A stretch of DNA of 63,912 bases, counting the filler, from Folioceros fuciformis (lineage: Eukaryota): assembly GCA_049999805.1 (NCBI GenBank). It is 5 parts of 5 records of this genome, joined end to end, with 100 filler letters (N's around TTAATTAATTAA, not from the genome) between each part and the next. Parts side by side here need not be neighbours in the genome. Positions count along the whole stretch, not along the records: positions 37,990 to 60,201 come from JBNGIO010006396.1; 4 more parts are not named here. The stretch is one strand, 5' to 3'. Made by a program: the position numbers and the translations under genes. How positions within the stretch are numbered: position 1 is the stretch's first letter; every line of letters starts with the position of its first letter. This document shows positions 22,201 through 62,776 of this stretch, in pieces. The notes under the pieces are model-generated. The model was not told where the DNA came from and ran no database searches. It saw only the letters and a list, made by a program, of their open reading frames with translations.

Positions 22201-22686
22201 AGCATCAGACCAAGCTAGCCATTACATGATACCAGCAAGAAGATTTGCCATATCCCAAAGATGTACAAGGATTCCATCTGTGAAAATAAGGATACCTGAC
22301 AAAATCATCCTTGTCCTTGCCGAACCCATGTTCCTCATCTACTAGGGAGGGCGCTGCAAAAGGAGCAGAGAAAACTTCGTCCAACCCTGAGAAGTCCTGC
22401 ACGAGCGCTCTTATCTAGGGNNNNNNNNNNGCTGTGTGTGTAGATGGTATGTGGCGAGGTGGGTGAGGTTGTGTGTAGCATTGTACCGGCGATTGTGGTG
22501 TAGATGCTTACAAAACGATGCTGTGTGTGCAGTATCGGTTAGACGTTCGAGATAATGCTGTGGGAGCTGGGGATTCCGTGGCTGGGCGAACGGCTTCACT
22601 GACTCCAGTTGATGTTGAGTTGTGTAGCGGGGCCTGTGGTGGTGGAGTAGGCGTGAGGAGGTGGTGGTAGGTTTGGCGGTGGAGGC

Positions 22687-25600
22687 ATGGGTAGTTGGGA
22701 GCAGAGCTGCGAGTGGCAGGATCTGGAGCCGCTTCCTGCTGGTCTGGTGAAGCTCCTGCGCGATCTTGGCGCAACAGGAGGGCCAGAGCCAGCGACGGCT
22801 TCCACAGCTGACGGCACTCGCCTACATCTTACATATTTTGATGGCAGTCTGGAGGAAGTGTACGGCGATTACGGGCCCTTTTTCAAGAGGGGTGTCGCAA
22901 CGGAACTAGAGAAGCAGACGGCGGCGGAGCAGAAGCGGTGGTTGGAAGTCCGGGTGCAGGTGCTGGCTGCCATCGCGCGATGCAGGACTCTGAAAATGAT
23001 CCACGTGCCCAGGGGCTGGTGCGTCGGGGAAGGCGGCCGCGAGAGGGAGTGGGAAGCCATGTGGGGCCCTCTGGAGGTGGCATCGAAAACCAACAATTCC
23101 TCTTTACAAGAGCTGTATTTGGGAGGGTGTCGGGGGCTGGGAGAAAGCGAGGCTGCGTGTGAGGCACTGGGTGGCGTCCTGGCCCACAGTCGTACGCTTC
23201 GCGTGCTGGATATCTCTGACACGGACATGGGGGCCAGCGGGCTGGTGCATCTGTGCTGCTACCTGGCAGAGAACCAGGAGTCCGCCCTCCGCGTCTTGAA
23301 CTTGTCTGGGAATCGGAGACTGGGCGGCGGCGGGAGTAGCGGAGGGGCCGCAGTTGTGGCGGCGCTGCTGAGTGAGAAAGTGTGTCCGTGCCTGCAGCAC
23401 TTGGACATGCGTGGGATAAGGTTGGACTGGGATGGAGCAGAAGTGATTGGGATGGGCCTGGCCAGGAACACCACCTTGCGAACGCTGCTCCTTGGTTGTG
23501 GGTTATTTGGTGGTGACAGGGACGCCTTGGTCCATGTGGTTCGCACTGGACTTGGTGTAGCCGAAGATTCTGTCATCGATTTTGGCGTTGACGTGGCTAA
23601 GATTGAGGAGATCTGCCTTCGCATTTCGGGCATGACACGTGGAATCGAGGCGGACGTTCACGTGTTTAGCAAGCCTAAAGGTGAGAGGAGATGGGTGGAA
23701 GGAAGTATGATGAAGAAAAGAATGGTGGATGAGGGGGACGGGGGTGGGATGCAAAGGAGATGCTGGAGGCAAGGGGATGTTGAAGAGCTGCAGCCGCGAA
23801 TTTCAGTGGCTTTGCAAGAGCTTGTGCTGGATCTGGGCGGGAGTATTAGTCTGTGCCCATCGCCACCCTCCTCCCAAATGCACCTACCTCACCCACGCCG
23901 GCAACGCACCCGCCTTCCAAACTTATATGAAGATGTCGCGTTCGTGGATTTCTTCGGTAGACTACCATGGCCGGTGGAGACGGAGGAAAGAAAGCGGTGG
24001 AGGCAGGTGCGGCAGGAGGTGTTGACTGCCGTTGGCAGGTGCGCCTCCCTCATCCATCTGGGATGGTCCGCTCATAAGTTCGGCGAGGAGGGGCGAGACG
24101 ATGCGGTGGAAGCACTGTTGGGAGGTTTGAAATCGATTGCCAACTACTCGGCCTTAAAATCGTTGGATTTGAATGGGTGCAGCGGTGTGGGGGGGAGTGA
24201 AGCTGGATGTGCTGCCCTAGGGGCCTTCCTACGCTCCAGTCCCAGCATCCACTATTTAACGTTGGATGGTACAGGCCTGCAGCCAGACGGGCTGGGTCAA
24301 TTGGTGCGGGGGCTGGAGGCGAATCCCCACCACCCTCTCCGCGCGCTGAGTCTGTCAAGGAACGAGGTGGGAGGTGGTGATGGCGGTGCAGCAGGAGGTG
24401 AGGGCGGGGCTTTGCAGGTAGCGAAGCTGCTTCAGGCCACCGTGTGCCCCAACCTGCAACTGCTGCACATCGTGGATATTTGGTTGGATTTGGAAGGTGC
24501 ACACATGATAGGTCAGGCTTTGGCGAAAAACTCGTCGGTGCGCCGGTTGGGTTTGGGAGGGAAGAATGACAAAGGGGTAGGGTTACTGCTTCGGACGGGA
24601 CTGGCGAGGGAGAGGGAGAGNNNNNNNNNNNNNNNNNNNNNNNNNNNNNNNNNNNNNNNNNNNNNNNNNNNNNNNNNNNNNNNNNNNNNNNNNNNNNNNN
24701 NNNNNNNNNNNNNNNNNNNNACCTACCTTGCCATCTACGGGATGACGGAAAAAGATGTGGACAATGTGAATGTCGTTTTGCGCACTAATCATGTGTTGGA
24801 ACAGTTGGTTCTTCTGGATTCCTTCTGTGGTGAAGCAAATGTGGGGTTGAAGATGAACGAAAATACTAGCATCAAGGATATAGAGTTATTCCGTGGAGAG
24901 TACTGCCAAAACTTCATCGAAATATTTCTGCACTCATTGCAAGACAACGCATCATTGGAAGAACTGGATCTCAGCTTTTGGGCTCCTTGGAACTATTCAG
25001 TAATGGAATCGAAGGCAGAATTCCTATACATCCAGTTGATGCAGCTGTTGGATAAAAATATATTCTTGAAAAAGATTTATAGTAACCTTCCAGCAGGAAA
25101 GCGCGCACTGATAGAGGAAAAATTACAGCGAAATAGGAGTCTGGCAACTTATCTCCCTCAATTCCGAGCACGATATCCGCAATGTACCACCCCAACCACT
25201 GGTAGAATTTTCCTTCTCGGTCCGCCAGCTGCAGGTAATAATGCGCTTTCTTTTTAATCGCTATTGAATGTGCCATCTGCAGGTAATAATGCGCTTTCTT
25301 TTTAATCGCTATTGAATGTGCCAGTTGCCAGGTAACTAAGTTGTGATTGAACATTTTTTCATGAAGGAAAAACAACCTTGCGCGAACAGATGTGCAAAAT
25401 CCAGGATCCTCAAGCAAAATCAAAAGACCGGAATACGTGGATGGAGTGTATACCGAGGCCATGGAAGAAAACTGAAGGCATAGCGGTGAAGTCCGTCCGC
25501 CATCCAGAAACGGGATTGCAAGTAAGCTTTTGGGATTTAGCTGGTCAAGATGAGTATCGCTTTCTGCATGACTACCTCTTCCCTAATATTCACCAAGCTT

Positions 25601-27575
25601 GTTTATTTTTGTTTGTATTTAATCCTTTTCAATTAAAAAAAAGTTAATTGAAATTAGTACACAATTTCAAAAACAATTTAGTTATTGGTTGAAGTTTATT
25701 TCATCTAATATGCAAAAAAGAGGGACAACAAAACCAAATGTATTTGTAATCATCAGTCATCTAGATAAGTTTGAAGAAGATAAAAAAATTTATTATGATA
25801 GTTTACAAGAAGAATTTATTAAACTAAAAGATATATATAAGAAACTTATTACATTTCCTAAGGAAATGCAAATGATAAATACTTATTCTCCAATAGATGT
25901 AGAGAACATATGGGCATACACTTCGAAAACACTAAAAAACTTGTGTGAGGAAGGAATTAAAGTGCCAGAAATGTGTGAGAAGGTATGTAGTGCCTTGATA
26001 AACTGGACACTACAAAACCAATCTCAACCCTTCATGACCCAAGATGAGTTTAAGAGCTTTTGTATGTGCACTTGTAAAGAATTAACTAGCTTGCAGGGTC
26101 TTGACCAAACCAACATTATAAATGCTATTTCGTCTTATCTACATGACAGTGGAAATATTCTTTATTTTAAAAAGTATAATATCAGAATAGTAAATCCAAA
26201 CTGGTTGACTGAGCACTTTGTAGGTCAACTTATACAAACAAATAGTCCTTTACGACAAGAAACTAATGACCAAGGATTTATTGAACAATACGATCTCCAA
26301 CTTTTCCTCAATAAGACATTTGTTAAAAATGCTAAGTACACTAATTTGAAAACCCAAGACTTGGTGAATATTATGGAGGAGTTAGAATTGTGCTACAAAG
26401 ACATTGTAGAAGATCGTCAAGGCTACTTCATTCCAACAACAATGCTGGACAAGGAGCAAGCTCTACAATGGTTATCTGCATCCAAGGATCAAGGAGTGCA
26501 ATACGAATATTTTGGACATCGATTGCAATGTGAAGATTTTTGTCTAATGGTCTTAACTGAGGGTTTTTTTCCACGGTTTCAGGTACACTTTACTTGTTTG
26601 TATGAAGTACTTACAATCAAGAATATGACAAAGATGTTAATCTACTTAGTGTAGCTACTTGCATTCACTCCTAGTGTTTTCTTGTTGTAGGTGGCCTTCC
26701 GAAAGTATCTCTTTTCTAAGCCCAACCTTGGAATGAAGGATCTTCTATACAAGTTAAGTCCCAACCTTATCTCAATGGCTTGTGACAACATCGATATTTT
26801 GATAGAATTGAGTGGTGGAGATGTGCCTGGTAAATATGTTGACATACTCATCAGATCATCAAAACGAAGTCCAAGTTTGGCTAATGCATTTGTGAAAGAT
26901 CACATCCTTGACCAGTTGAGAGCTTTTTGTGCTTCACCGAAAGGTTGCCCGGGAGTTACATTGGTGCAAGGTATCATCAATCCTTATTGTGTACGCAACT
27001 TGATACCTTGCAATGATAGACATGGGCAAGCATGGTTGGAAAAGGATTATAGAGAGTATCTTCTAGATGAAAAGCAAGCTTTGAAGTGTGGGGAAGGATA
27101 CTTTACTATGAGCAACATATCAGATCGTGTATATTATTGGCCTGAAATTCCTGGACATGTGTCACATCCAATATGCGTTCTTGTAGTAGAAATTTTGCCT
27201 GCACAAGACTTGAAGAACATAATGTCGGAGAATCATAAGTTTCACTACGATCAACATCATTCCATATCGAAACTAGCAAGTGATCTAACACATGGCAAGG
27301 AAAAAGGTGTAGGTGGAGATGATGGTTTGTCTATGACATCAAAAGAGACAATTACGAGCTCAAAGTCAAAAGATCCTTCTCCAAGTGTGACTTCAACAAG
27401 TTCTCCTTTTGTAAGGGGTCGTTCTTATGTTTTGGGTAGGCCAAGATTGGAACGCATGGAATATGTGGTGAACAAAATATACAACAATGTGAATAATATC
27501 AAGGACAACCAAAACATGCATCATGGGGAAGTTATGAGAAGTTATGAGCATGGTTGTATTTCATTTTATGAATGA
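22687..27575 (+). CDS. TORNADO1-like Roco protein: doubled N-terminal module + RNI-like LRRs, Roc GTPase, COR; one frameshift in A8 at 25635-25642
   Basis: LRRs such as LQELYLGGC, LRVLDISDT and LRVLNLSGN. Walker A GPPAAG/KTT spans intron 25235-25366, followed by TEGI, SFWDLAGQ and IISHLD. COR motifs YLHDSGNILYF, VNPNWL, GFFPRFQ/VAFR (intron 26583-26690) and CASPKGCPGVTLV. 100-N gap at 24621-24720. 3' end uncertain. Confidence 0.85.
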
Positions 27576-39680: not shown

Positions 39681-39704
39681 CACCCTTTACGTGTCAAGGT
39701 TATC

Positions 39705-43719: not shown

Positions 43720-43915
43720 GCTCGGTCCTGACTGATGATGGAGAAGGACTGATCAGCATTTGGTTACAGCACCCCTTATAGTCACCCCCGAAAGGGTGTG
43801 TGACTCTTGAAGGAGGAGCTCGGTCCTGACTGATGATGGAGAATGACTGATTAGCATTTGGTTACAGCACCCCTTATAGTCACCCCCGAAAGGGTGTGTG
43901 ACTCTTGAAGGAGGA
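43720..43915 (+). repeat. ~98-bp direct tandem duplication
   Basis: AGCTCGGTCCTGACTGATGATGGAGAA...CTCTTGAAGGAGG occurs twice. Confidence 0.9.
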
Positions 43916-44529: not shown

Positions 44530-45090
44530 ATGGTGTACCAACTCTCCTCGACTGTGTGTGCTTTGAGGTTGACGTCCCCCCCCCTAGCCTATCCTTGTCT
44601 GGCGTCCCAATCCTCCTCGAGTTTGTGTGCCGTGAGGTTGGTGTCCGCTAGGCTGCCTATCCTTGTTTGGTATGCCAATCCTCCTCGAGTGTGTGCTTGT
44701 GAGGTTGCTGGCACGTAGCATATCATCGTCTGCTGTGGCAATCCTCGTCGACAGTGTGTGCTGTGAAGTTGACGTCCCCTAACCTATCCTTGTCTGGTGT
44801 CCCTATCCTCCTCGAGTGTGTGTGCTGAGGTTGGAGTCCCTTAGGCTGTCTGTCCTTGTTTGGTGTGCTCGAGGGTGTGCCTGTGAGGTTGCTATCCCGT
44901 AGCATATCCCTGCCTGGTGTGCCAGTCCTCCTCGAGTGTGTGTGCTGTGAGGTTGATGTCCCCTAGCCTATCCTTGTTTGGTCTGCCTATCCTCCTCGAG
45001 TGTGTGCTTGTGAGATTGCTGTCCCGTCCGGTAGCCTGCCCGAGTCTGGTCTCCCAATCCTTGAGTGTGTGATGTGAGCTTGCTGACCCT
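44530..45090 (+). repeat. ~62-66-bp minisatellite directly upstream of the LRR gene
   Basis: About 9 copies of ATCCTTGT..GG....CC.ATCCTCCTCGAGTGTGTG..GTGAGGTTG. Confidence 0.85.
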
Positions 45091-45162
45091 GCTACAAAAC
45101 GGATTATACATACAATCCATTCATCATACTTGCTAGAATTGGGAAGCGCAGCTTCGCACAGC

Positions 45163-47808
45163 ATGGCAGCGGAGTCGGACTATGACTGGCATGAGTTGCC
45201 GGAGAAGCTGCAACAGCTGCTGGTAGATCTGGAAGACAATGCCTTGTCCGAACTCCCGGACTTGGACGGAGAGGAGTACGGCAATTTCTTCGTATATGGA
45301 GCTTCGAACAGCAGCGATGGCAGGCACGGGCGAGTGCGGAATCGGGTATTGACAGCAATTGGCCAGTGCCGCAGTCTCCGAAGCCCGAAGATTATTGAGG
45401 AGTGGGAAATCGGCATTGATCGGGAGGATGAATGCGTGGTTCTGCTGGGTGCCCTGGCATCCAACCCTTCCCTGGAATCGCTTGATCTGAGTTGGTGCAA
45501 AGGTTTTGCTACGCTGGCGGGTTGCAAGGCCCTGGGCCAGCTTATTGCTTCCAGTCGCAGCTTGCGACGGCTGGAGGCACGCGGGATCGGGGTTGATGCC
45601 ACGGGACTTGGTGCTCTGGTCGAAGGCTTCTTCAACAAGGATTGTGTCCTAGAGTATTTGAACCTCAGCCGCAACAGCGTGGGAGATGCTGAAGGGGCAC
45701 AGCACCTGGCTCGCATGCTGGCCACCGCTCCCCGTCTCAAAACCCTGGATTTGCGTCGGATCGGCATGGATGAGGCGGGAGCCCAGTTTATTGCGAACGC
45801 TCTTCCACTCTGTGCCACGCTCCGGAAGCTTTATTTGGATGCTCTAGATCCAACTGACCAGGATACAGTCTGGGGTCTCGTGCAGGGTAGCCTGGGGCCC
45901 GTCAGCAGTGTGTTGAAACTTGCTTTCACACGTGCCGGTGCTGATGCTGCCATATCTGGGGTCACCAAGCTGATATTGGATATCAGCGACAGCGAGAAGC
46001 CAGGCCTGGCCGACGCGCTGTCCGGAATGTTGCGCACCAACGATCGTATCACGAAGCTTGAGATCAACCTTTCTGCCGTTGAGTGCGGTCTGGGCGCCTG
46101 GCGCCACAACTCCACCCTCTCTAAACTAAACTTGGTTGAGTTTCGCGACGGTGACAAATCTTTGAGTGAATTTTCGATGTCGTTTCTGGACTGCAAATCA
46201 TTACGTGTCCTGACTTTGCGTAGGATTTTTTGGCCCACTTTCATGAAAGCATTGATGCAGTCTTTGGAGAAAAGAACATCTTTGAATGAACTCAACATTG
46301 TGTCATGTGATGACCTCGATGATGAGCTCTCCAGAGAGTTGATGCAGTTCGTCCGAGCCAGCACCACTTTACGGAAGCTGAACATGGAGGGCACAGAGTG
46401 CGATTGGGAAGAGAATGCGGCCATCATCCGCGCAACGTTGGCACGAAATGCTACTCAAAGCGACCGCTGGGGGAGGATTGCGGAGGAGGAGAAGGAGGAG
46501 GATGACTGGAGCGCGATGCCGGCTGAGCTGCAACAGCTGGTGGAACATCTGGAAGGGAATGCCTTGTCCGAACTCCCCTACTGGGAGGATGAGTGTTACC
46601 GTGATTACTTCCCAGAGCCACATCCTTGGTGTATTATGGATGGCCACTACTTCGGAGAGCTTGGTCGTCGTAGGAGGCACTGGCGAGTGCGCAAGCGGGT
46701 ATTGACAGCTATTGGCCACTGTCGCAGTCTCGGCGACGACCTGACTTTCTTCGCGGAGTGGGAAATCGGCATCGTTCAGGAGGATGAATGCGCGGTTCTG
46801 TTGGGGGCCTTGGCATCTAACCCTTGCTTGGAAACTCTTTGTCTGGATGAGAGCCAAGGCTTTGGAACGCTGGCGGGTTGCAAGGCCTTGGGCCAGCTTA
46901 TTGCTTCCAGTCGCAGCTTGCGACGGCTGGAGGTAAGCTGTATAGGGCTTGATGCCACGGGACTTGGTGCTCTGGTTGACGGGTTCTTCAACAAGGATTG
47001 TGTTCTGGAGTATTTGAACCTAGGACACAACAGAGTGGGAAATGCTGAAGGGGCACAGCACCTGGCTCGCATGATGGCCACCGCTCCCCGTCTCAATACC
47101 CTGGATTTGTGTGGGATCGGCATGGATGAGGCGGGAGCCCAGTGTATTGCGAACGCTCTTCCGCTCTGTGCCACGCTCCGGGAACTTTATTTGGATGATA
47201 TATATTCGTGTGCCGGGTATTCCAGTTCGCGTGTCCTACAGGGCAGTCTGGGGTCCATTAGCACTGTGTTGAAACTTGCTTTCACCCGTGCTGATGCTGA
47301 TGCCGCCATATCTGGGGTCACCAAGCTGTCATTGTATATCCCGGACAAGGGGGAGCCAGGCCTGGCTGACGCGCTGGAGGGAATGTTGCGCACCAACGAT
47401 CGTATCACGGAGCTTAGTATCCAAGGTTTTTCGAGTGGGATGGACGGTATTTCGTATGGGATGGACGGTTCTTCGAGTGGGATCGAATACCGCCTGGACG
47501 TTGATGATGAATTTCCGATGTTTTCTCTGGAATGCAAATCATTACGTATCCTCACTTTGATGGGTATTTGTTGGCCCTCTTTCATGAAAGCGTTGTTGCA
47601 GTCTTTGGAGAAAAATACATCTTTGAAGGAGCTCAGGATTATGAGGTGTTATCCTCTCGACGATTACCTCTTCAGAGAGTTGATGCAGTCCCTCCAAGTG
47701 AACACCACTTTACAGAAGATGGACATAGTGTCCACAGACTGGGGTGTTGAGGGAAAGCAGGCAATCATCGACGCGACATTGGAACGCAATGCTACTCACA
47801 AGGCCTAG
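45163..47808 (+). CDS. RNI-like LRR ORF of two tandem ~440-aa modules; N-terminal part of a Roco gene truncated by TAG
   Basis: ATG at 45163. Modules start DWHELPEKLQQLL and DWSAMPAELQQLV, and both end ATLxRNAT. Roc motifs follow the stop. Confidence 0.8.
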   Translation: MAAESDYDWHELPEKLQQLLVDLEDNALSELPDLDGEEYGNFFVYGASNSSDGRHGRVRNRVLTAIGQCRSLRSPKIIEEWEIGIDREDECVVLLGALASNPSLESLDLSWCKGFATLAGCKALGQLIASSRSLRRLEARGIGVDATGLGALVEGFFNKDCVLEYLNLSRNSVGDAEGAQHLARMLATAPRLKTLDLRRIGMDEAGAQFIANALPLCATLRKLYLDALDPTDQDTVWGLVQGSLGPVSSVLKLAFTRAGADAAISGVTKLILDISDSEKPGLADALSGMLRTNDRITKLEINLSAVECGLGAWRHNSTLSKLNLVEFRDGDKSLSEFSMSFLDCKSLRVLTLRRIFWPTFMKALMQSLEKRTSLNELNIVSCDDLDDELSRELMQFVRASTTLRKLNMEGTECDWEENAAIIRATLARNATQSDRWGRIAEEEKEEDDWSAMPAELQQLVEHLEGNALSELPYWEDECYRDYFPEPHPWCIMDGHYFGELGRRRRHWRVRKRVLTAIGHCRSLGDDLTFFAEWEIGIVQEDECAVLLGALASNPCLETLCLDESQGFGTLAGCKALGQLIASSRSLRRLEVSCIGLDATGLGALVDGFFNKDCVLEYLNLGHNRVGNAEGAQHLARMMATAPRLNTLDLCGIGMDEAGAQCIANALPLCATLRELYLDDIYSCAGYSSSRVLQGSLGSISTVLKLAFTRADADAAISGVTKLSLYIPDKGEPGLADALEGMLRTNDRITELSIQGFSSGMDGISYGMDGSSSGIEYRLDVDDEFPMFSLECKSLRILTLMGICWPSFMKALLQSLEKNTSLKELRIMRCYPLDDYLFRELMQSLQVNTTLQKMDIVSTDWGVEGKQAIIDATLERNATHKA

Positions 47809-48400
47809 TGGCCTTTGCTTTCGGAGGGGCACGAGGCTGTGAAGCCCAGGGTCGGGTCTTTTCCTGTGCGGTGCACCTTACGCACGGAAGACCACTCTCC
47901 GCACCACATGATTACCGCATGGCACGCATCACAAACACACACAAGTACAGCAGCCGCATCACCCAACCACAACGGTACTGTCACCAGAACAGAAGGAAAG
48001 GAAATCGAGGTGCTGCGCAACGACGATGAGATGGAAGACTACTTGTTCCCGAGCTTCAATCAGACGTGTTTTCCTGTTCACCTTCAACCCACTTGATGCC
48101 GACAAGCCTGGCGAACCCCCTTCCGTCCCATGAAACGCTGCTGGACAAGTTCAGAAACGGCTTTAAGTTTTGGCTTAGATTCATCCACTCTAATTCTCGC
48201 AACGTGGGTTCCTGTTTGCCTCGGGTATTTGTGGTTATCACTCATAAGGATGAGATGGAGGATGGGGACGCTGAATTACTAGTAGATGTGCTGCAACCAG
48301 TCATGACACAGTTGGCCAAGGATTTTGAGGAGGCACTCCTTATCACGACAACGCCTCTATTCTTCATGGATGGTCGATGCGAAGAGACTGTGCAGCCCGA
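47809..48400 (+). pseudogene. Degenerate Roc GTPase domain continuing the LRR ORF
   Basis: Across frames: LFLCGAPYARKTT (Walker A G to R), RTEGKEIEVL, DYLFPSFNQ, FLFTFNP, FWLRFIHSNS and PRVFVVITHKD. The WDLAGQ segment is deleted. Collinear with 25200-25770. Confidence 0.85.
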
Positions 48401-48409
48401 AGAGGGTCC

Positions 48410-48990
48410 ACACGGAACAGGGTACGTTCTCTCAAGGTAGAGAAGACAAGGCAGAGAAGCTTTACGTTGAAGATGATATTTTGGAGCCCATCGCTGAATG
48501 CAAGCTTTTGGCAAACAACCCTAAGACCTTTCTCATAAATGCTTGTCGAGGCACTGGCAATCTCGTCAGAAGCATGAAAGCGCAGGAGTCAAGCACCACC
48601 AACCCTGCAACCAGCAGCAAAGCCAACGTGTCAGACGTTGAGGGAAGCCAAGTTGTGAGCAAGAGAGTTCGACCATTGTCCTCTGTGAAAGACCTCCTAA
48701 CCGATTTCTCCACCAGTCCTGGAGATGAATCTTTGAGAGATGTGGAGGTAGGCACAAACTTCATCATAGCTTTGATGGAAGCCATCGTGGAGGGCTCTGG
48801 AACAGAAGGTGTCGTGAGCATTCTGACAAGCGTGATTGGCAAGGTCACGGGCAAGGAGGTCCAACACAGAACCAAAGACGGGACTGTGAGAAGAAATATC
48901 AGTGTCCTGAGTTGCGCATGCGCAGTACACGTACCAGAAAGCTGTACTGGTCTCGACCACCCCAGACTCCTGTCATGCCTGGCTTGAGTC
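48410..48990 (+). pseudogene. Caspase-like domain copy 1 (C-terminal p20, linker, p10) abutting the Roc domain
   Basis: CKLLANNPKTFLINACRG (Cys codon 48544-48546), DLLTDFSTSPGDESLRDVEVGTNFIIAL and SILT..IGKV. The His region is deleted and there is a frameshift near 48882. Confidence 0.88.
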
Positions 48991-49915
48991 AGTAGCATGT
49001 TGCCAGGGCCTGTGAGGCCTTCAATCAAGTGTCAGGTATGCTCTTCAGCTACCATACTGTTGGTGTATCAAATACTGCTTCTGATAGACCTTGTCGCTTC
49101 TCCCTTGCCCGGAATTCTTTCCTGTTGGGCAAGAGAGACCTCTCACAGCGTCGTGATGGGGATGAACAAATGATGCCCCATGGAGGCTATGCGTAGGGAG
49201 GGAAGGACGTTCGCGCTTGTACACACACACTTGCGGCTCTTGGTTTTCAGAGGCAAGTGAGTGATTAAGATTTGCGGCCTTGTGGCTTTCACAATACTTG
49301 CACAATGTCAGAATGTATCTTTCATCTTCCCGACCAGCCGTAGCTTGGTCCCTCAGTGAAATCGCGTGTGCACCTTCTGCCTTCAAGTCACAGTGACACC
49401 AGGGAAGAACGAGGGGTAGCTCACTACTTGTGTTAACTGGATTCCCTTTTCTAGCGCGTCACCTGTAGCACATGCACAGGTATAGCTTTTAGTCATCCAA
49501 TCGAGGAGCAGACGTGCGCCATGGGTGCCTCCCTTCCTGTGGCAGGCCATAAGAACCGGATCACGGAGATGAGAAACCATTAGCCCCTTCAGGAGCATGG
49601 CAGCAGGACATGCCGAAGGTCCGCCCTTCATCACCATCTGTCCCCTGCTCGGTTTGCCAAATCGGTCTTCGGATGATGGTTAATCGTCTGACAATCCAGT
49701 TTCTACAGCGTTACGATGACAAGCACAGCCTGAGCACACTTGCCTGGTCACTGCCTTTTCAATCTAACTTGCATCTTGCATCTCTGTACTTCCCAGTCCC
49801 AACTACCAGGCAAGAAAAGCTTCCAGCCATCGCTCGCCGGCATGTAGCGGGGCCCTGGGCCTGCCTGTTGCATCCTGCCGCACCTCACGGAGGCTTCAAG
49901 TACAGTATTTGCAAT

Positions 49916-50250: not shown

Positions 50251-51209
50251 GGATGTCGGGGAGGAGAAAGCGTAGGTCGGACTTGTCGAAGGGAGGAGGG
50301 CATACTTGTACATACTTTACATAATAATGCACACATGTCGACGGCAGAATGGTTGATGTCTCCCGACACCCAAACTCATCCTCTAGGCTTTTACATCTTT
50401 CATGCTTTGTATTAAAAACTTAAGAATGTTAATACGCTTCGTAGATCAAATCACTTAAGCTTGTATTTCTAAGTAATAGGGGACAACTTTCAATGAGATT
50501 CTAAGTATATACTCATACATAAAAGCTTCTCTAAACCTAAACCTTGAACAACCTTTGGATATGAAAAAATATAACCTAGACTCATAACTATACTCCATGG
50601 CTTAGGAGGACAAAGGTTATAAGCTTGCAAGCTATTTTCATGTTCCACTTACTTAAAGTATTCCATGCTCATATCTTAGGAGTAATTAGTTTTTATAAAT
50701 TATTTTTGGTTTTTTTGAAGAAATTATTTTCCTTATATTTTAAGATAAAATGACTTTAAGCTTCCCTCTTTAAAAGTCATCTCTTTAAAAGTCATTAAAA
50801 TCATTTTAAAAGTTAATGACTTTAAGCATCTCTTTTTATTAAAATGTATGATAATAATCATTCAAGACCTATACGCATAGATCAGTGTACAGCGTAGTTT
50901 GTGGTTACCCAAGGCAATCAGTGCATGTACTGGTGAAGCCATCTCAGGCATGACCCTAAGATTAATGGCCCTGTCTAGACCTGTTGCAAAGAGAAGGAGA
51001 GAAGAATCGTGAAGGGCGTGCAGTGACAAGCTTGCAGCCATTACCATCTATGATGATGAAGGTTTATCTTGTACTGTGAAGAAGGGACCGGGCTGTTACA
51101 AATCCAAGCTAACCGAGTAGGAGGCAGGATTTTCACATACATGTGCTTGCACGTGGAGCATTCCTTGCTCGCAATTGCAACTGAAGCATCCTTTGGTCAG
51201 GACCTGGAG

Positions 51210-52728
51210 ATGGAGCTGCAGGCAAGCGCGCTGTGGATGCCAGTGCTGCTTGCAGCTTTGGGACTGGTTGTAGCCGTGGCAGCTGCCCCGTTACAGGCTG
51301 ATTTCTGGAACTGCAATCCCAGGCCGGTGTGGGGTAATCCCCTGAACGGCATTCTCATTCCCAACTGCTGCACGCTGGAGGCGCTGATGCGCAAGCCCCA
51401 GCCGCTGTACAAGACATGGCAGCAGTACTTGGAACAGAGCGGTCTTCGGGATGGGCCGATGCGAGTGCGTCCAGCTGCGCATCTCATCGCAGACAACGAA
51501 ACCTACCTGCAGCAGCTAGATCTGGCGTTCAGGCTGCACAAGGCGCTTCCAGACGCCGATCCGAGGTCCCAGATTTCGCAAATGAACCTCCACTGCGTTT
51601 ATGGCTCTCCTAACGTGTCGCGCCAGGCTGGGTACGAGCACTTGAGCTACGTCACGCACGTCAATTGGTACTTCTTCCCCTTCCACCGCTGGTAAGCTCT
51701 CATGGAGCAGGAACTGCTGTGCATGTCTAGTTCAAGTGATGGCATCGCTGTTGCTGTTGCTGTTGCTATTGAATCCGGTGATGCGCGTTCCATTTCACCC
51801 TGGCACTTTGGCCTCGGCTGAAAAATAGGTTCACCTTCTTCTTCGAGAGGATACTGGCCAAGTTGGTCGGCGACGAATCCTTTGTTCTGCCTTTCTGGAA
51901 CTGGGACAATCAGGGCGCCGACTCCAAGCACCTTCCCAACACTGTTCCCCACTACTACCGCAATCCTGACAAGTACCCCGGCCTGTATCACAAGTATCGC
52001 GATCCTCGTCACCGACCTGAAGCAGAGCCTGCCGTCATCAACCTCCTTCGCAACTCTGTCGAATCAGGCTTTTCTCCCACGACACCGCAGGAAGTGGCGC
52101 GGGCTCGTGCACTGAACAAGGCGCACCTGCGAAGCTTGATCGTGGACGCCACCGCCGACGGTAGCAGACCCGGAGTCTTCCTCGGCGAGCCGATGCGACT
52201 GGGAAACACCTATCCCGACCATGAGATCTGGAGATCGAAATTCGAAGCGGAAGCGCACATGGCTGTGCATTTCTGGATGGGAGACCCTGCTTATGGGTTT
52301 GCGGACATGGGGCTGGTGTATCACGCCGTTCGCGACCCGATTTTCTTTGCCCACCATGCCAATGTTGACAGGATCTGGAACGTTTGGATGGTAGGTTAAT
52401 GTTGCACGGAGTGGAAGCATGGATGGACCACAGATTATGAATCAAATTTGGACCCTCCCATATGAGACAGACTGACTGACTGGTGTTGTTCGTTGTTCAG
52501 GGACTCGAGGGCAGGCGCAACTATGATGAACCCGACTTCCTGGACGCTGCCTTCTACTTCTACGACGAGAATGCGGAGATTGTGAGGGTCACTGTTGCCG
52601 AGTGTCTCAGTTCTGACCTCCTGAGATACACCTTCCAAGACGTGGAGAACGAGTGGGTGACCTACGACGCATCAGACTATTCAGTCCTTTTCGTTGACGA
52701 CCCATCTTCAGCACGTTCCCAAGCATGA
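51210..52728 (+). CDS. PPO: Polyphenol oxidase (type-3 copper) with signal peptide, 3 exons (51210-51691, 51829-52390, 52501-52728; 423 aa)
   Basis: CuA: HCVYG...HVNWYFFPFHRW. Also LPFWNWD. CuB: HMAVHFW...DPIFFAHHANVDRIW. DWL-region FYFYDENAEIVRV. GT-AG introns restore one open frame. Confidence 0.92.
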
Positions 52729-54113
52729 TGACTGGGTCACCATGCTTGAATGGATGGATTCGAATCCTTTACGTTTAACAGCCCATGCACACAACGTTCC
52801 CGACCGCATGAAGGAGTAGCCTACAGACACACGAAGACACTTTGAACTTGTATTCCTAATGTCCCGTAGTTGCTTAACCTGAGTCACCTGAGTGTCATAG
52901 AGGTCGGGGGCTTTCAGCAGCTTGCTATATCCAGGTCCATCAGGTCGAACTTTTCAAGATCCTCCTCCAAAACGTTGAGAATCAAGACTCAACAGAATTG
53001 TCAGATGCCTACCGCAAGGTCCTTCCAGCCATGGCTGATGGAAAATTTCAAACTTATGAAGCGTAAGATGACATGACATTAGACAGACAACGTAATCTCT
53101 CCCACAATACCACACAACTACTGTGGTTGGTTGTCAACTTCATAGCAGCACTTCAGCTGCAGGTCTTGTGGAAGCACTGTAGATCCCAACTTGGGCTGCC
53201 TGTAAGCGACAGACACGCCCAACCGAAGCCATCTGAAGCAAGAAGGCAGCGGAAAGCGGCAGCTGTGAAGCGGGAAAGGAGGAGCGAGGCAGTAGAGGGT
53301 TTGGGTATTGTGCGAGCATGCCACAAGAACCTTCCGCTTTTGAGCTTGGGCTACAACAGCGAGTTAAAGCAGCCATCGGAGGTGAAGGCCAAGCGTTCCT
53401 TGGCCTTCGGCGGGGGAGGCTGCTAATGTGATCCGTGTAGCTGGGGTTTCGCGGACCCCCGCGTTTTCTTTGGGCCTCGGCTCTGTTCCCGGAACAGCTT
53501 CCTTGGCCTTTGGAGGCGGAAGAAGCTATGTAGGAAGGGTAGCCCCTCTGAAGGGAGTATGAGTGCACAGGAGCGGACAGATTGTGACTGTCAGGAGCCG
53601 AAACAGGCAGCAAACCGAGGCGTCGTCAAGGGATGAGGACCAGGGCAAGTCCATTGGGCTCCAAAGGCGCTGGTGGGAAGATCCGGAAGAACCTGCTCGA
53701 GTTCGCGTGTTTTGCAGGACATCTGGTATCCGGAGACCTCCGGTACTCCCCCGTTGTGCTGCGGAGCCTAACTTTGAGCTGTAGGGATTAATTACCTTGT
53801 CTGGACCTGATCCAAAGGCAAGGAGAGGACAGGCGTCAAGGGCGTGAACTGACAATCTTGCAGCCGTTACCAGGCAAGGAGAGGACAGACATGAAGGGCG
53901 TGGAATGACAAGCTTGCAGCCATTCCCGTCCATGATAATGACAGTTCATCTGGTATGTACTACGAAGAAGGGACCTGTCTGTAACAAAACCAAGTTAACC
54001 GGTCCCGACGAGAGGATCCTTCAAGTAGGAGGCTCGATTTTCACATACATTTGCACTTGGAGCATCCCGTGCTCACAATCGAACTTCAAGCATCCTTTAG
54101 TCGGGATCTGAGG

Positions 54114-54719
54114 ATGGAGATGCTGCCGAGCGCGCTGTGGATACCAGTTCTGTTCGCAGCTTTGGGACTCCTTGTAACCGTGGCAGCTGCCCCGCTACAG
54201 GCTGATTTCTGGAACTGCAATCCCAGGCCGGTGTGGGGTAATCCCCTGAACGGCATTCTCCAGCCCAACTGCTGCACGCTGGAGGCGCTGATGCGCAAGC
54301 CCGAGCCGCTGTATAAGACATGGCAGCAGTACTTGGAACAAAGCGGTCTACAAGGCGACCCGATGCCCATCATCCCAATGTTGACAGGATCTGGAACGTT
54401 TGGATGGTAGGAATGTTAACGTTGCAAGGAGTGGAAGCATGGACCCTCCCATATGAAACAGTCTGACTGACTGGTGTTGTGCATTTTTCAGGGACTCGAG
54501 GGCAGGCGCAACTATGATGACCCCGACTTCCTGGACGCTGCCTTCTACTTCTACGACGAGAATGCGGAGGTTGTGAGGGTCACTGTTGCCGAGTGTCTCA
54601 GTTCTGACCTCCTGAGATACACCTTCCAAGACGTGGAGAACGAGTGGGTGACCTACGACGCATCAGACTATTCAGTCCTTTTCGTTGACGACCCATCTCC
54701 AGCACGTTCCCAAGCATGA
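54114..54719 (+). pseudogene. PPO: PPO duplicate with both copper sites deleted
   Basis: 5' part matches 51210-51460, then jumps at ~54368 to the NVDRIW segment. The last exon and 3' flank (to ~55220) match 52501-53235. Confidence 0.9.
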
Positions 54720-55785
54720 TGACTGGGTCACCATGCTTGAATGGATGGATTCGAATCCTTTACGTTTAACAGCCCATGCACACAACGTTCCCGACCGCAT
54801 GAAGGAGTAGCCTACAGACACACTACGACACTTTGAACTTGTATTCCTAATATCCCGTAGTTACTTAACCTGAGTCACCTGAGTGTCATAGAGGTCGGGG
54901 GCTTTCAGCCGCTTGCTATATCCAGGTCCATCAGGTTGAACTTTTCAAGAGCCTCCTCCAAAACGTTGAGAATCAAGACTCAACAGAATTGTCAGATGCC
55001 TACCACAAGGTCCTTCCAGCCATGGCTGATGGAAAATTTCAACCTTATGAAGCGTAAGATGACATTAGACAGACAACGCAATCTCTCCCACAATACCACA
55101 CAACTACTGTGGTTGGTTGTCAACTTCATAGCAGCACTTCAGCTGCAGGTCTTGTGGAAGCACTGTAGATCCCAACTTGGGCTGCCTGTAAGCGACAGAC
55201 ACGCCCAACCGAAGCCATCTGAGCCCAGTCCGGGCCGTCCCTCTCTGGTTTTCCTGATTCTCATAGCGCATAAGCTGCACACGTCTGACCAGGTCTTTAA
55301 TCTCCTTGTTGTCCTTATCGCCTGGTCCGAGTTCGTCAGGAGTGTCTTCAGCTCTTCGTCCTCCACACTGGGCTCCCGGCCTACTGTCAGGTGCTTTCAT
55401 ACTGCTGTTCGGCCCCCCCGAAGTGTCACGAGCTGAATGCCTTCTGCAGAGCCCGCTGGTTTGGGAGACGTCGGAGGTGGTGGGGACTGATGAGCGCCTG
55501 GGGGTGCTGACTGCTCCAGGGCTTGAAGCACACTCCCCAGCTGCCTCCCCCGGAGGGTCGGACCTAGCCCTCTCCCAACTGGGTGTCGTCGATGAGCGTG
55601 GACGCTTGGATCATCAATCCAGTCTCAAACATTTGCATGCAACAGCAGCAACTTGACGACACTGCGGAATCACGGTGAGCAACGGGTTCTTACAACAAGA
55701 GGCAACAATTTTTAATGGGTCGCGAATTCGCGGACACCCCTACAGTCAGGTAACAGCTACATCGCAGATTTGCCAGCGAAACCAT

Positions 55786-55910
55786 TTGCCCCGTTACAGG
55801 CGGATTTCTGGAACTGCAATCCCAGGCCGGTGTGGGGTAATCCCCGGAACGGCATTCTCATTCCCAACTGCTGCACGCTGGAGGCGCTGATGCGCAAGCC
55901 CGAGCCGCTG
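55786..55910 (+). pseudogene. Third PPO 5' fragment
   Basis: GCCCCGTTACAGGCGGATTTCTGGAACTGCAATCCCAGG...GCAAGCCCGAGCCGCTG matches 51285-51407. Confidence 0.85.
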
Positions 55911-56104
55911 CGGAGCCTAACTTTGAGGTGTAGGGATTAATTGCCTTTTCTGGAACTGATCCAAGGGCAAGGAGAGGACAGGCGTCAAGGGCGTGGAATG
56001 ACAAGCTTGCAGCCATTACCGTTCATGATAATGACAGTTCATCTTGTAGATGAACTGCACACCGGTTGATGGACTGCTTTCTCGAAAGCCTGCAGATCTC
56101 TTAG

Positions 56105-57183
56105 ATTTCCTCCGACTCGGATCTGCCTCGTTACTTCCACGTCTGGCCAGCTGCAGGAAGGCCTGAAGCCAGTCTACGCAGTGCACAAGAGGATTCCATT
56201 AACTTCTTAAGTTGCGGTGAGGTTGAAAATGTTTTGAAGGCGTGGCGCACAAGAATGCAGTCCGATGCAAGGAGTGGCCCTTCAGCTGCGAAAAGGCACT
56301 CACAGGGAGCGACTCAAATGGATTCAATGCAGGAATCAGCATACCCCAACGAAAGGGTGAAAGCAGTTGAGCGGAGAGGTCTAGCAATGGTTATAAATAT
56401 GGAAGAAGACAGACCTAGAGGAGCGGTAGACAGAGAGCGACTTCAAGCTCTGCTCGAGACCTTGAAGTTTGATACAGACATCGTGGTGAACCATCCACCT
56501 AAGGAAGTGAAATCAAGGTTGGAAAAAATTCTCAGGGTCCAATACCTAGCAGAGGACAACTGCTTTCTGTTTTGCATCAACGCCCATGGTGGGACTGATG
56601 AAAACGGAAGGCAGTACGTTCGCTTAGGTGTAAAAGACAAGGCCGGGAAGATGTTGAAGATGATATTTTGAAGCCCATCGCTGAATGCAAGCTTTTGGCA
56701 AACAAGCCCAAAGGTTATTCTCATAAATGCTTGTCGAGGCAATGGCAATCTTGTCAGAGGCATGAAAGCGCAGGAGTCAGCACTGCCAACCCTGCCACTA
56801 CCAGCAAAGCCAAGGTGTCAGAGGTTGAGGGAAGCCAGGTTGTCGGCAAGAGACTTCGACCCCTTTATTCTGTGAAAGACTGCCTCACAGTTTTCTCCAC
56901 CAGTCCTGGAGATGAGTCTTTGAGAGATGTGGAGGAAGGCACAAACTTCATCATAGCTTTGATGGAAGCCATCGTGGAGGGCTCTGAAACAGAAGATGTC
57001 TTGAGCATTCTGACAAGACTGATTGGCAAGGTCACGGGCAAGGAGGTCCAACACAGGACCAAAGACGGGTGCTATGAGAAGAAATATCAGTGTCCTGAGT
57101 TGCGCATGCGCAGCACACTTACCAGAAAGTTATACCGGTCTCAACCACCCCAGACTCCTGTCATGCCTGGCTTGAGTGAGTAG
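56105..57183 (+). pseudogene. COR-like tail plus a complete caspase-like domain (copy 2) with three small frameshifts
   Basis: Open frame 56105-56671: RYFHVWP...FLSCGEVENVL, linker, RGLAMVIN, DRPRGAVD, CFLFCINAHG (His codon 56585-56587). Then KPK/VILINACRG (Cys codon 56732-56734), DCLTVFSTSPGDESLRD..GTNFI, EDVLSILT, QCPE..STLTRKLY. Confidence 0.9.
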
Positions 57184-58089
57184 CATGTGGCCAGGGCCTG
57201 TGATGCCTTCAATCAAGTGTCCGGTATGGTCCTCAGCTACATACTGTTGGTGTATCACATACTGCTTTTGATGGATCTTGTCGCTTCTCCCTTGCCCGGC
57301 ATTCTTTCCTGCTGGGCAAGAGAGACCTTTCACAGCGTCCTGATGGGGATTAACAGATGATGCGCCATGGACCCTATGAATAGGGAAGAACGTGCGCGCT
57401 TGTACAGACACAATTGCGGCTCTTGGTTTTCACAGGCAAGTGATCCAGATTTTTGGCCTTGTGGCTTTCACATCACTTGCACACTGTCAGGATGTATCTT
57501 TCATCTTCCCGACCAGCCGAAGCTTGGTCTCTCAGTGAAATCGCGTGTGGAGCCTCTGCCTTCAAGTCACTGTGACACCAGCGAAGAACGAGGGGTAGCT
57601 CACTACTTAAGTTTACTGGATTACTTTTGCCAGCGTCCCTACTGCAGCACATGCACAGGCATGGCTTTGAATCATCCAATGTAGGACTACACCTGCGCCA
57701 TGTGTGCCTCCCTCCCTGTGGGCGTGAGAGAAGTATCACGCAGATGAGAAACAATGAGCGGCTACAGGAGAATGGCAGCAGGACATGCAGAAGCTTCGCC
57801 ATTCTTCACCATCTGTTCCCTGCTCGGTTTGCCAATCTTTGTTCCTATCATGGCTAGTCATCTCACAATCCAGTTTCTACAGCCTTACGATAACAAGCAC
57901 AGTCTGAGCGCACTTGCCTGGCCTTTGGCTTTCAATCTGGCTTGCATCTTGCATGTCTAAACTTCCAGTCCCAACAGCCAGGCAAGAAGAGCTTCGAGCC
58001 ATGGCTCGCCGGTAGGTTGCGGGGAACTGGGCCAGCATGCTGCATCCACCCGCACCTCACGAAAGCTTCAATTACAATATTTGCTATGG

Positions 58090-58575
58090 AGCGTGCCTGT
58101 GAGCCTTTTGAGAAATTGTTGCATGTGAGTGCTTGCTTCTTGTGCGCCTGCCTGTGAGCCTTTTGAGAAATTGTTGCATGTGAGTGCTTGCTTCTCGTGT
58201 GCCTGCCTGTGAGCTTGCCTATGAGCCTAGGGGTGAGGCTGCGAGTAAGATGGCCTTTCAGCTTGGGAGAGAGACTGCCTATGAGCCTGCGACGGAGCTT
58301 GCCTGTGAGCCTACCCGTAGCCTGTGCGTGAGCCTGCCCATGGTCTGTGAGTGAGCTTGCCTATGAGCCTGCGATGGAGCTTGCCTGTGAGNNNNNNNNN
58401 NCTGCGATGGAGCTTGCCTGTGAGCCTACCCTTGGCCTGTGAGTGAGCCGGCTTGTGGCCTGTGAGTGAGGCTGCTTGTGGCCTGTGAGTGAGGCTGCTT
58501 GTGGCCTGTGAGTGAGGCTGCTTGTGGTCTGTGAGTGAGGCTGCTTGTGGCCTGTGAGTGAGCCTGTCTATGAGC
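58090..58575 (+). repeat. GCCTGTGAG(TGA) minisatellite
   Basis: Many GCCTGTGAG units, including a 21-bp unit GGCTGCTTGTGGCCTGTGAGTGA. Confidence 0.9.
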
Positions 58576-59581
58576 CAACGAAACATAGACAATTTCGTAG
58601 GTGCCACTAGTGATAGTCGTAGAGACACAAAAGGTATAGTTCCCAAGCTATGCTAGAGGCTGAAATTTCTCCTCAAACTCCTTTTGACTTTTGCACCTCA
58701 TAGCTTGACTGAGGTACACGAACCTCATCTCGTACTCAAGCTAGGACTTGCGAAGAACAAAGTACTATAGGCATTTCTTCAAGCAGCCCCTTCCATTGCC
58801 TTTGAATTTTGCATGACACGCCACAAGTGTGCAGCAATAGAAGCTAGGACCTCTTTGTTGGAATAACGCATACTCTAAGCAACCACATAAACTATATATG
58901 ATTTGATTCAGGATTTTGTAACACAGCTAACAAGGACTCTTACTTGGTTAATGCTCTCTTCTCCTTTCTACGCAATAATCAAAAGCTTAGCACACTTAGT
59001 CCCTCCTGCTAGAGATCTCTGCTAGTAAGAACTAAGTATGAAAGAGGGCTTGCGCTCTCTCTAACATTGTAGGATGCTATATGGAATTGGTGGCCTAACT
59101 CAGGCTCCCCGCCTAACTTAGGCTCCCGGCCTTCCTGTACTCTTAAAGCATCGCAATGCGATCATAATCTAACTTTTTCTTCTGCAGGAAAAAAAATGCA
59201 GAGAAATCAAGATCTTCCATAGTATATTTCTATGACAGTGTTGCCCAATTAACTTTTGTCCACCCCACTGCATTCCTAATGCACACTCTTGTAGATGAAA
59301 TGCAAAGGAATTAAGATCTTGTATACCCCAAGATCCACCAAGTGGATGGATTTCTTAGTATGGTGCACAAGGTACTATTATTATTAATAGTATTTAGGCC
59401 TACTAGGGCACGGTTCATCCTAGGTCAGGATACCAACGAGCATAAGTGAAACGGTTACAACCATACTGTGTCTCGCTCGTGACGCTTGACTCTGCACAAA
59501 GGTGCAAACCTTCTACTCTTCAATCTAATGCAAAATCTACCGCCTGAACATCCATCGCTCTCGCCTCTTGCTCCATTCACA

Positions 59582-62676: not shown

Positions 62677-62776
62677 NNNNNNNNNNNNNNNNNNNNNNNN
62701 NNNNNNNNNNNNNNNNNNNNTTAATTAATTAANNNNNNNNNNNNNNNNNNNNNNNNNNNNNNNNNNNNNNNNNNNN

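Follow-up and report, generated by a model that had tools for sequence, protein, structure and literature searches.

A probable C14A-like caspase gene copy in the plant-type genome of Folioceros fuciformis and the multi-copy, ROCO-linked family to which it seems to belong

The basic S1 pocket of animal caspases lets them cut after Asp, and the residues that form it are Arg179, Gln283 and Arg341 in caspase-1 numbering. The catalytic His of caspases lies in x-H-G and the catalytic Cys in the pentapeptide Q-A-C-x-G, and two molecules pair through strands of the small subunit to give the active dimer. Metacaspases and orthocaspases have a catalytic Cys motif of the D-[AS]-C-H-S-G type, and the paracaspase MALT1 cuts after Arg. 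To our knowledge, the output domains of ROCO proteins are kinases, death domains or none. In the current view, as given for example in PMC10896300, caspases are confined to animals, and the plant counterparts are metacaspases alone, with cleavage after Arg or Lys. Brown-algal leucine-rich repeat (LRR) ROCO proteins have been proposed as immune receptors (PMC11378527), and caspase-like peptidases are effector domains of bacterial nucleoside triphosphate (NTP)-dependent conflict systems (PMC7159879). In this work, we describe a segment of the Folioceros fuciformis genome (assembly GCA_049999805.1), at 56255-57183 of a stretch of 63,912 nucleotides analysed as a whole (the window), that is likely to be a copy of a C14A-like caspase gene in a plant-type genome and to belong to a multi-copy family linked to ROCO genes. 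A second, shorter copy lies in the same window; we refer to the two as copy 1 and copy 2. An earlier note, made from the sequence alone, had merged both copies to read an animal-type caspase domain. With respect to that note, the multi-copy family, the link to LRR-Roc-COR genes and the possibility that the frame breaks are assembly errors are new.

Copy 1 lies on the forward strand and reads from an ATG at 56255-56257 to a TAG at 57181-57183, in a frame that holds only with three shifts, near 56648, 56713 and 56780. None of the four resulting pieces (56258-56647, 56650-56712, 56714-56779 and 56782-57180) has an in-frame stop. The first includes ERRGLAMVINMEEDRPRGAVDRERL then CFLFCINAHGGTDENGRQYVRLG, and carries the two motifs of the His half, DRPRGAVD with the S1 Arg (56408-56431) and INAHGG with the catalytic His (56576-56593). 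The second piece translates as DVEDDILKPIAECKLLANKPK and the third as VILINACRGNGNLVRGMKAQES, the latter containing the catalytic Cys motif; in this region KPK is at 56704-56712 and INACRG at 56723-56740. The last piece runs through a linker to DCLTVFSTSPGDESLRDVEEGTNFIIAL ... QCPELRMRSTLTRKLY, with STSPGDESLRD (S1 Arg) and GTNFIIAL within; the small-subunit motifs ESLRD and STLTRKLY are at 56914-56928 and 57112-57135. Pfam PF00656 (Peptidase_C14) scored above its cut-off of 21.4 bits in two of three raw window fragments, at 3e-5 (24.2 bits) for the His half of copy 1 and 1.7e-10 (41.4 bits) for the C-terminal half, and the read-through of copy 1 with its pieces joined by X aligned with positions 26-271 of a profile (337 positions, made from 58 hits) at 170.4 bits. 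Because of these Pfam and profile scores, the caspase resemblance of copy 1 is beyond chance. An uninterrupted frame encoding both halves is present in neither copy as written, such that neither, judged by its sequence, would be able to make a protease.

The resemblance is to caspases proper. When the C-terminal half was compared with the PDB using phmmer, 110 sequences were found at E<=1, the best at 3.4e-6 over 90 residues, and the best 60 of the 110 were all caspase-3, caspase-7 or a reconstructed ancestral effector caspase. In the PDB alignment, with caspase-3/6/7 as the best match, ESLRD falls on YYSWR and STLTRKLY on SMLTKKLY. The His half gave eight matches at E<=10, seven of them caspases (best E 0.025); the eighth, a dynein chain, was taken for chance. 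A profile of five C-terminal-half fragments, His half not included (A2), was run exhaustively with HMMER against 1.84 billion representative proteins; 281 of them passed E<=1e-3, of which 10 also passed E<=1e-10, and E<=1e-30 was reached by none. Among the best 150 of the 281, xC[RQKLS]G was found in 142 (101 QxCRG, 23 NxCRG, 21 QxCQG and a few others) and KPKxFxIxxC with the last Gly changed in 7 more, which brings the caspase-type total to 149 of the 150. One protein in this set, P0078, is an unrelated bacterial one. A further profile, built from the 12 closest relatives and the window fragments (A3), matched caspase-7 at 1.1e-41 across the whole domain, and its 60 listed matches were all caspases-1, -3, -6, -7 or -8. 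Metacaspases were absent among the matches listed in the PDB, A2 and A3 searches. An Atlas look-up of one relative, P0002, gave animal caspase clusters only (score 0.90), which we take as a lead and not as a test.

For the fold comparison, a compact relative, P0008, stood in for the window protein, to which it is only about 30% identical. Its model (predicted local distance difference test, pLDDT, 92.8; predicted template modelling score, pTM, 0.90) gave Z scores of 29.1, 28.3, 28.2, 25.3, 24.8 and 24.7 with caspases, including caspase-9, insect caspase-1, CED-3 and caspase-4. The values were 23.9 with MALT1, 19.3, 18.3, 14.9 and 12.2 with metacaspases, and 16.2 with legumain. Caspases filled the top rows of a Foldseek search with the same model, at about 6e-20, and in the fold comparison the sequence identity of P0008 was 15% with MALT1 versus 21-28% with caspases.

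The alignments also bear on specificity. INAHGG and INACRG align with SHG and QACRG of caspase-7, residue 1 of the pentapeptide being Asn and not Gln; the window thus reads INACRG where a metacaspase would have its D-[AS]-C-H-S-G motif. In the family and profile alignments, the first Arg of DRPRGAVD aligns with the Arg of caspase-7 RNGTDKD, the Asn of INACRG with the Gln of QACRG and the Arg of ESLRD with the Arg of SWR, such that Arg, and no acidic residue, occupies both aligned S1 positions. When 67 sequences of the clade and of other caspases were aligned, conservation was 90% or more at both Arg, at the His and the Cys, and at the Asp that precedes the small-subunit strand. From these aligned residues, the family would be expected to cut after Asp. 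By its sequence, and by the predicted fold of a relative, the window domain belongs with the caspases (C14A), apart from metacaspases and orthocaspases. What the earlier note had proposed held up on these points. Re-translation of 56255-57183 returned its motifs at the positions it gave, and alignment to caspase-7 bore out its two S1 arginines and the Asn at Gln283. The PDB matches, the 149 of 150 Cys motifs, the A3 profile and the P0008 fold agree with the animal-type C14A domain. Of the checks it had suggested, the profile comparison led to caspase-7 at 1.1e-41 and not to metacaspases, and modelling of P0008 put this relative closest to caspases, both by Z score (24.7-29.1) and in Foldseek.

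Table 1. Positions in the window of the caspase copies and of the features discussed with them.
Feature	Position	Strand	Evidence
Copy 1, start codon and His (large-subunit) half, with S1 Arg and catalytic His motifs	56255..56647	+	Translation, Pfam, BLASTP
Copy 1, stretch with three frame breaks and the catalytic Cys motif	56648..56780	+	Frame translation, alignment to copy 2
Copy 1, linker and small-subunit half to TAG	56782..57183	+	Pfam PF00656, phmmer against PDB
Copy 2, Cys motif, linker and small-subunit half	48421..48992	+	Translation, alignment to copy 1
3' flank duplicated with the caspase, matching 48993-49922	57184..58094	+	86.5% identity, 908 aligned bases, 11 indel events
LRR open frame, 911 residues, directly 5' of copy 2	45073..47808	+	Pfam LRR_6 E 2.8e-8
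Remnant of the end of a Roc GTPase (135 residues), between LRR frame and copy 2	48030..48434	+	Paralogy
Paralogous LRR-Roc-COR gene without caspase	22657..27575	+	Pfam LRR_6 1.4e-9, COR-A 1.2e-15
Tandem polyphenol-oxidase genes between the caspase copies	51060..55222	+	Pfam Tyrosinase 1.3e-22

Copy 2 is made of 48421-48882 and 48885-48992; it follows a single frame to 48882, breaks near 48883 and continues into the tail. It is truncated at its 5' end, the His half being absent, and it has INACRG (48535-48552) and ESLRD (48727-48741) in the same frame (FLINACRG ... STSPGDESLRD). Over 568 coding bases it is 90.3% identical to copy 1, and, set against copy 2, copy 1 shows length differences of +4 (56650), -1 (about 56706) and +1 (56778). 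Both are parts of a duplicated unit of about 1.5 kb, 48422-49922 versus 56614-58094, with 86.1% identity over 1503 columns. The ratio of non-synonymous to synonymous substitution rates (dN/dS) between the copies is 0.39 over 171 codons, with 18 synonymous and 25 non-synonymous changes, and the synonymous excess has a one-sided binomial p of 0.0046 versus neutrality. These sequence comparisons fit a family once under selection, the copies of which would since have decayed or would be partly mis-assembled. Just 3' of the duplicated flank, 58068-58650 contains imperfect short direct repeats and long repetitive frames on both strands, a run broken by N's at 58392-58401.

What lies upstream of copy 2 ties the family to ROCO genes. 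The LRR frame at 45073-47808 is paralogous, at E 9e-18, to the LRR part (22657-24620) of a further gene in the window, whose three frames between 22657 and 27575 we infer to form one unit. The Roc remnant that follows has no Pfam match of its own (48030-48434); over 65 residues it matches the beginning of the COR-A frame of that gene, 25623-26654, with 38% identity (E 1e-12). Its homology stops about 80 bases before the caspase homology starts, and COR and the caspase His half are missing between the remnant and 48421. The simplest reading of this arrangement is that copy 2 would be an LRR-Roc-COR-caspase gene after internal deletion of COR and the His half. Among the relatives, P0007 and P0151 have, ahead of the caspase domain, some 165-180 residues homologous to the frame that comes after COR-A, 26691-27575 (BLASTP 1e-9 and 2e-13, respectively); these contig-derived proteins carry only the post-COR-A module of a ROCO. 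Given the LRR frame and Roc remnant ahead of copy 2, and the ROCO module present in two relatives, the working form of the family is probably a ROCO-caspase fusion.

We also considered whether copy 1 kept a COR linker. From about 56315 on, its His fragment matches P0007 and P0151 with 34% identity (BLASTP, E 1e-17 and 1e-18), and the idea was dropped since no homology of these relatives was found upstream of that point. In P0151, ISGHG replaces INACRG and the His motif is kept; by its sequence this would be a pseudo-protease with a catalytically dead caspase domain. Within 22657-27575, the G+C content at third codon positions (GC3) is 0.64 in the LRR part versus 0.31-0.35 in the Roc-COR frames, and a run of N's (24621-24720) lies inside the LRR frame, such that this gene may combine two parts that arose separately or may span an abrupt change in composition.

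The nearest proteins to the window copies are 12: P0001, P0002, P0005-P0008, P0013, P0017, P0022, P0097, P0098 and P0151. They have in common with the window an AHG-type His motif, INACRG, VFST..G..S.R, GT.F and a KLYW-type tail; their open frames are of 262-450 residues, with full-length Pfam caspase matches of 1e-22 to 8e-34. In a FastTree of 137 domains, a branch with support 98 separates the two window copies, together with the 8 relatives of sufficient length to be included (30-38% identical), from all other rows. In an IQ-TREE of 57 rows, the same group had SH-aLRT 100 and a stem of about 1 change per site. The rows of the latter were the 10 of the clade, every second of 93 others (45 rows), and the long-branched P0115 and P0129, which were added back after 17 long-branched rows had been set aside before sampling; both trees are unrooted, without a metacaspase or orthocaspase outgroup. 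On these sequence trees, the family is a long-stemmed clade of its own, not nested in one group of other caspases.

Closer neighbours and possible donors were searched for as well. None was found for copy 2 at E<=1e-3 among 170 candidates, and the search for near relatives of P0007 gave only itself and P0151. Two motif scans of prokaryotes, with one genome for each of 185,579 species, gave no caspase relative; one of the two, made with alignment A4, had 31 pattern matches, and an A4 scan of viral contigs had 110, with no relative in either. Among metagenome contigs, 15 of the 112 stretches found with A4 encode caspase relatives, 25-50% identical; their His motifs are of the SHG or THG type wherever the His region could be aligned, and none falls in the window clade by eye. 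Horizontal acquisition, which the earlier note had entertained, has no support, as the prokaryote and viral scans gave no donor. Because of the long stem of the clade and the fusion to a host gene family, recent transfer or contamination is disfavoured; both features are compatible with an old transfer or with old inheritance followed by loss. The string KPKxFxIxACRG was met twice in prokaryotes and both matches were rejected, one being a Trichodesmium frame resembling a dehydrogenase and the other a Cytophagales contig with an unrelated overlapping frame. The former, at 6682-7677 of locus L016 of Trichodesmium erythraeum, contains KPKSFLINACRG, a 12-residue string of the caspase Cys motif type; here KPKSFLINACRG is a chance look-alike that would mislead searches by motif only.

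Read-derived contigs were aligned to 55000-58300 of the window. X1 and X2 are DNA runs of one sample, and X3, only guessed to be RNA, comes from another study with the same species label; the contigs and differences read in detail are a selection, beyond which lie 229 pieces and 76 differences. By likeness to the window (at least 99%, 95-99% and 90-95%), contigs numbered 24, 20 and 49 of 93 in X1, 22, 23 and 49 of 94 in X2, and 1, 11 and 45 of 57 in X3. The summed depth peaks over the caspase, several contigs diverge at 56708 into a variant reading, KVVIINACRG, and contigs from X1, X2 and X3 span most of the flank at 57184-58094. Because so many contigs are 90-95% alike and the summed depth peaks there, the caspase family is multi-copy in the organism.

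We return to 56255-57183 as a likely C14A-like caspase gene copy of a multi-copy, ROCO-linked family, and set down what weighs against it. No intact copy was seen whole, and a search for longer proteins (8000 scored candidates) gave two coral proteins in which a caspase is fused to tetratricopeptide repeats (TPR) and no full-length LRR-Roc-COR-caspase protein. The nearest relatives are only 27-40% identical to the window fragments; the two that were looked up occur in Logan assemblies only, and the relatives may or may not be plant proteins. The S1 Arg of the His half is unambiguous only in profile and multiple alignments, one pairwise alignment having put the Arg in an insert. The 'COR-B' nature of the module shared with P0007 and P0151 rests on its position after the COR-A match, and its model is of low confidence (pLDDT <50 at residues 1-33, 42-50, 86-141 and 144-169). 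Indel events between the copies number 5 in 568 coding bases, all of them frame-breaking, versus 11 in 908 bases of the flank (Fisher p 0.62), an equal rate that fits decay since the duplication. Finally, the plant-like pentatricopeptide repeat (PPR) and kinase genes of the window are linked to the caspase only across gaps of N's. The copies are probably relics of a multi-copy, lineage-specific family, with copy 1 possibly a live gene that was mis-assembled.

For the working members, we propose that the caspase would be the C-terminal effector of LRR-Roc-COR switch proteins. The LRRs would sense a signal, the Roc-COR GTPase module would drive dimerisation or oligomerisation, and the caspase domains, brought together in this way, would be activated by proximity and would cut their substrates after Asp. 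Such a protein could be a single-chain analogue of the apoptosome or inflammasome, most likely with a role in immunity or cell death. The sequence data bear out the kind of domain, its conserved residues, the plant setting, the multiple copies and a physical link to ROCO parts; cleavage after Asp, proximity activation and the biological role are what we infer for the family. As a tentative proposal, which we hold with somewhat less than even confidence, a land-plant lineage would keep live C14A caspases with predicted Asp specificity and would use them as the output domain of its LRR-Roc-COR receptors.

It is possible, although we find it unlikely, that copy 1 is an intact and perhaps working gene of about 310 codons, its three breaks being consensus errors in a multi-copy region. 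The four pieces are free of in-frame stops, and the 929 bases from ATG to TAG, once changed by +4, -1 and +1, make 311 codons (933 bases). All aligned contigs have four extra bases at 56650, CTTT or CTAT (depth 13/13 in X1, 22.5/22.5 in X2, 193.6/193.5 in X3), and an additional A at 56778 (33.1/33.1, 23.4/23.4 and 213.6/213.6, respectively). Both changes restore the frame, so two of the three breaks of copy 1 are unconfirmed by contigs; two of the three are length changes in short runs of A. Among the differences listed, 56632 is the only other position at which the X1 contig at 56650 departs from the window. Window-identical contigs of X1 extend over 56165-56601 and 57148-58104 but leave out what lies between, where either paralogues hide the contigs of copy 1 itself or the window consensus is wrong. 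The dN/dS of 0.39 points the same way. However, the contigs that restore the frame may come from paralogues, copy 2 itself aligning at 90% likeness, and they are a selection of contigs and differences. Moreover, three errors in 130 bases make a dense cluster, and the contigs end loosely and diverge near the third break, at 56706-56713. The frame breaks for which the earlier note merged the two copies may, at any rate, be assembly errors.

Less probable still, and in our opinion improbable, is that the family is dead cargo, a foreign one-off or a fragment without function that a mobile element or segmental duplication multiplied. Both copies are seemingly intronless and, in the window, broken; the 1.5 kb unit was duplicated together with its flank, the flanks are common to many copies, and the surroundings are a mosaic of duplicated polyphenol-oxidase fragments and retrotransposons. 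Against this stand the dN/dS of 0.39 with its p of 0.0046 versus neutrality, the contigs of paralogues, which are in frame at both readable sites, and the catalytic and S1 residues kept in both copies. Relatives outside the window, too, have open frames, which match the Pfam caspase family over its full length.

The genomic setting bears on whether the caspase segments are contamination or mis-joined animal DNA, which appears very improbable. A block without N's, 39159-58391, contains in this order the LRR frame, the Roc-end remnant, copy 2, the tandem polyphenol-oxidase genes, polyphenol-oxidase fragments and copy 1; Pfam PPO1_DWL is at 52480-52728 (5.9e-18). Elsewhere in the window are two PPR genes with an E motif, a gene with legume-lectin and kinase domains, and integrases of long terminal repeat (LTR) retrotransposons. 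The setting is plant-like, as the earlier note had said: PPO1_DWL lies in the gap-free block, and the PPR-E and lectin-kinase genes in the window. The nearest sequences and folds are those of animal caspases, no named plant protein was among the relatives found, and no single contig among those listed bridges the caspase to a polyphenol-oxidase gene. Nevertheless, the two copies are interleaved with PPO1_DWL genes in sequence free of N's, copy 2 adjoins LRR and Roc parts paralogous to another gene of the window, and X1 contigs identical to the window cross both ends of the frame into the flanks (56165-56601, 57148-57497). In addition, family members occur in the runs of two studies with the same species label, the FastTree clade stands apart from all 127 other caspase rows, and the GC3 of the caspase copies, 0.52-0.55, is unremarkable among neighbours of 0.30-0.88.

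That the domain is a divergent plant metacaspase or bacterial-type orthocaspase (C14B) with a few caspase-like motifs is scarcely credible: metacaspases are known from plants and all these peptidases fall in one Pfam family, PF00656, but CHSG occurs in none of the best 150 of the 281 A2 matches, Arg and not an acidic residue is at both S1 positions, the model scores lower with metacaspases (Z 12.2-19.3) than with MALT1 (23.9) and caspases (24.7-29.1), the NCBIfam bacterial caspase model was the sole match at 15.3 bits versus a cut-off of 140, with nothing above noise in NCBIfam or PADLOC, and the two motif scans of 185,579 prokaryote species found no relative.

Several other features of the window were noted. 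The polyphenol-oxidase genes show a tandem duplication (50994-51445 versus 53876-54349, 82%; 52348-53236 versus 54364-55222, 93%), and a 124-base piece of their 5' part recurs just upstream of copy 1, at 55787-55910, with 97.6% identity to 51284-51407; segmental duplications make the whole block of 50994-56048 a mosaic. A set of three long open frames (180, 195 and 158 residues) occurs at 18207-19783 and again, with the same translations, at 33676-35252, about 15.5 kb away; either a large segment was duplicated exactly or a part of the assembly is present twice, and the 180-residue frame has no Pfam match. A pattern of 44 N's, 12 bases and 44 N's is present at 17922-18021, 37890-37989, 60202-60301 and 62677-62776, besides plain runs of 10 and 100 N's, and these patterns look like masked or templated gaps and not ordinary scaffold gaps. 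On the reverse strand, 38351-38986 and 40936-41529 are paralogous open frames in an AT-rich stretch (GC 0.32-0.34), one of them with a weak Stress-antifung (DUF26) match (E 3.4e-4; 21.7 bits, below the cut-off of 25).

Among known systems, the animal effector caspases (caspase-3, -6 and -7) are the best sequence matches both to the window (3.4e-6) and to the family profile (1.1e-41). Their motifs follow one another as in the family, R-x-G-x-x-x-D, xHG, KPK-x-F-x-I-x-ACRG, ST-x-PG-x-x-S-x-R, G-[ST]-x-F-[IV] and S-x-L-T-[RK]-K-L-Y, and they are alike in both S1 arginines and in fold, with Z up to 29.1 for the relative P0008. The family differs from them in having Asn for Gln in the Cys motif (NxCRG in 23 versus QxCRG in 101 among the best 150 of 281), and in reading AHG, not SHG or THG, at the His motif and LYW or LYR at the end of the tail. 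Its clade is separate and long-stemmed, its setting is a plant-type genome in which the window copies are broken, and in some members the domain follows a ROCO module and not a CARD, a DED or a short prodomain. Plant metacaspases (C14B, such as Arabidopsis MC4 and MC9) have in common with it the caspase-hemoglobinase fold and the His-Cys dyad (P0008 Z 19.3 and 18.3), but the window family is without a CHSG-type Cys motif and its S1 pocket is basic, whereas that of metacaspases is acidic. The paracaspase MALT1 is alike in fold (Z 23.9 at 15% identity) and in carrying its protease domain within a larger signalling protein; its identity is lower than that of caspases (15% versus 21-28%) and its partner domains are others.

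ROCO proteins such as LRRK2, DAPK1 and the brown-algal LRR-ROCOs resemble the LRR-Roc-COR gene of the window, to the terminal module of which the caspase family is linked, and among the papers listed we found none describing a caspase as a ROCO output domain. The apoptosome, the inflammasome and the prokaryotic and fungal NTPase-sensor systems likewise combine a repeat sensor, a nucleotide switch and a caspase-superfamily peptidase. In contrast to them, the switch here would be a Roc-COR GTPase and not a STAND ATPase, and the protease would be fused and not recruited through a CARD; compared with the bacterial systems, the peptidase of the window groups with animal caspases and with none of the bacterial kinds. 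The coral caspase-TPR proteins (Orbicella faveolata LOC110055858; P0152 and P0153) were the only long proteins found with the family profile (E 8.5e-26 and 1.0e-25), and they also fuse a caspase domain to repeat modules. They differ in being animal, 23% identical to the first query row, and in having TPR instead of LRR-Roc-COR.

In titles and abstract starts, we came across no account of such genes in land plants, bryophytes included. If the proposal is true, caspases would not be restricted to animals, a part of the long-reported 'caspase-like' activity of plants could, in some lineages, come from true caspases, and sensing, GTPase switching and proteolytic execution would be found in one polypeptide. 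Should intact members be expressed, Asp-directed plant caspases would become testable, as would the rise and spread of the caspase branch of C14 and the use of a Roc-COR GTPase as a platform for caspase activation. Compared with what is described in animals, plants and bacteria, a plant-type genome appears to hold a multi-copy family with the sequence, predicted fold and S1 pocket of a caspase, tied to genes of a ROCO switch, and this would challenge the animal-only view of caspases if members are expressed intact.

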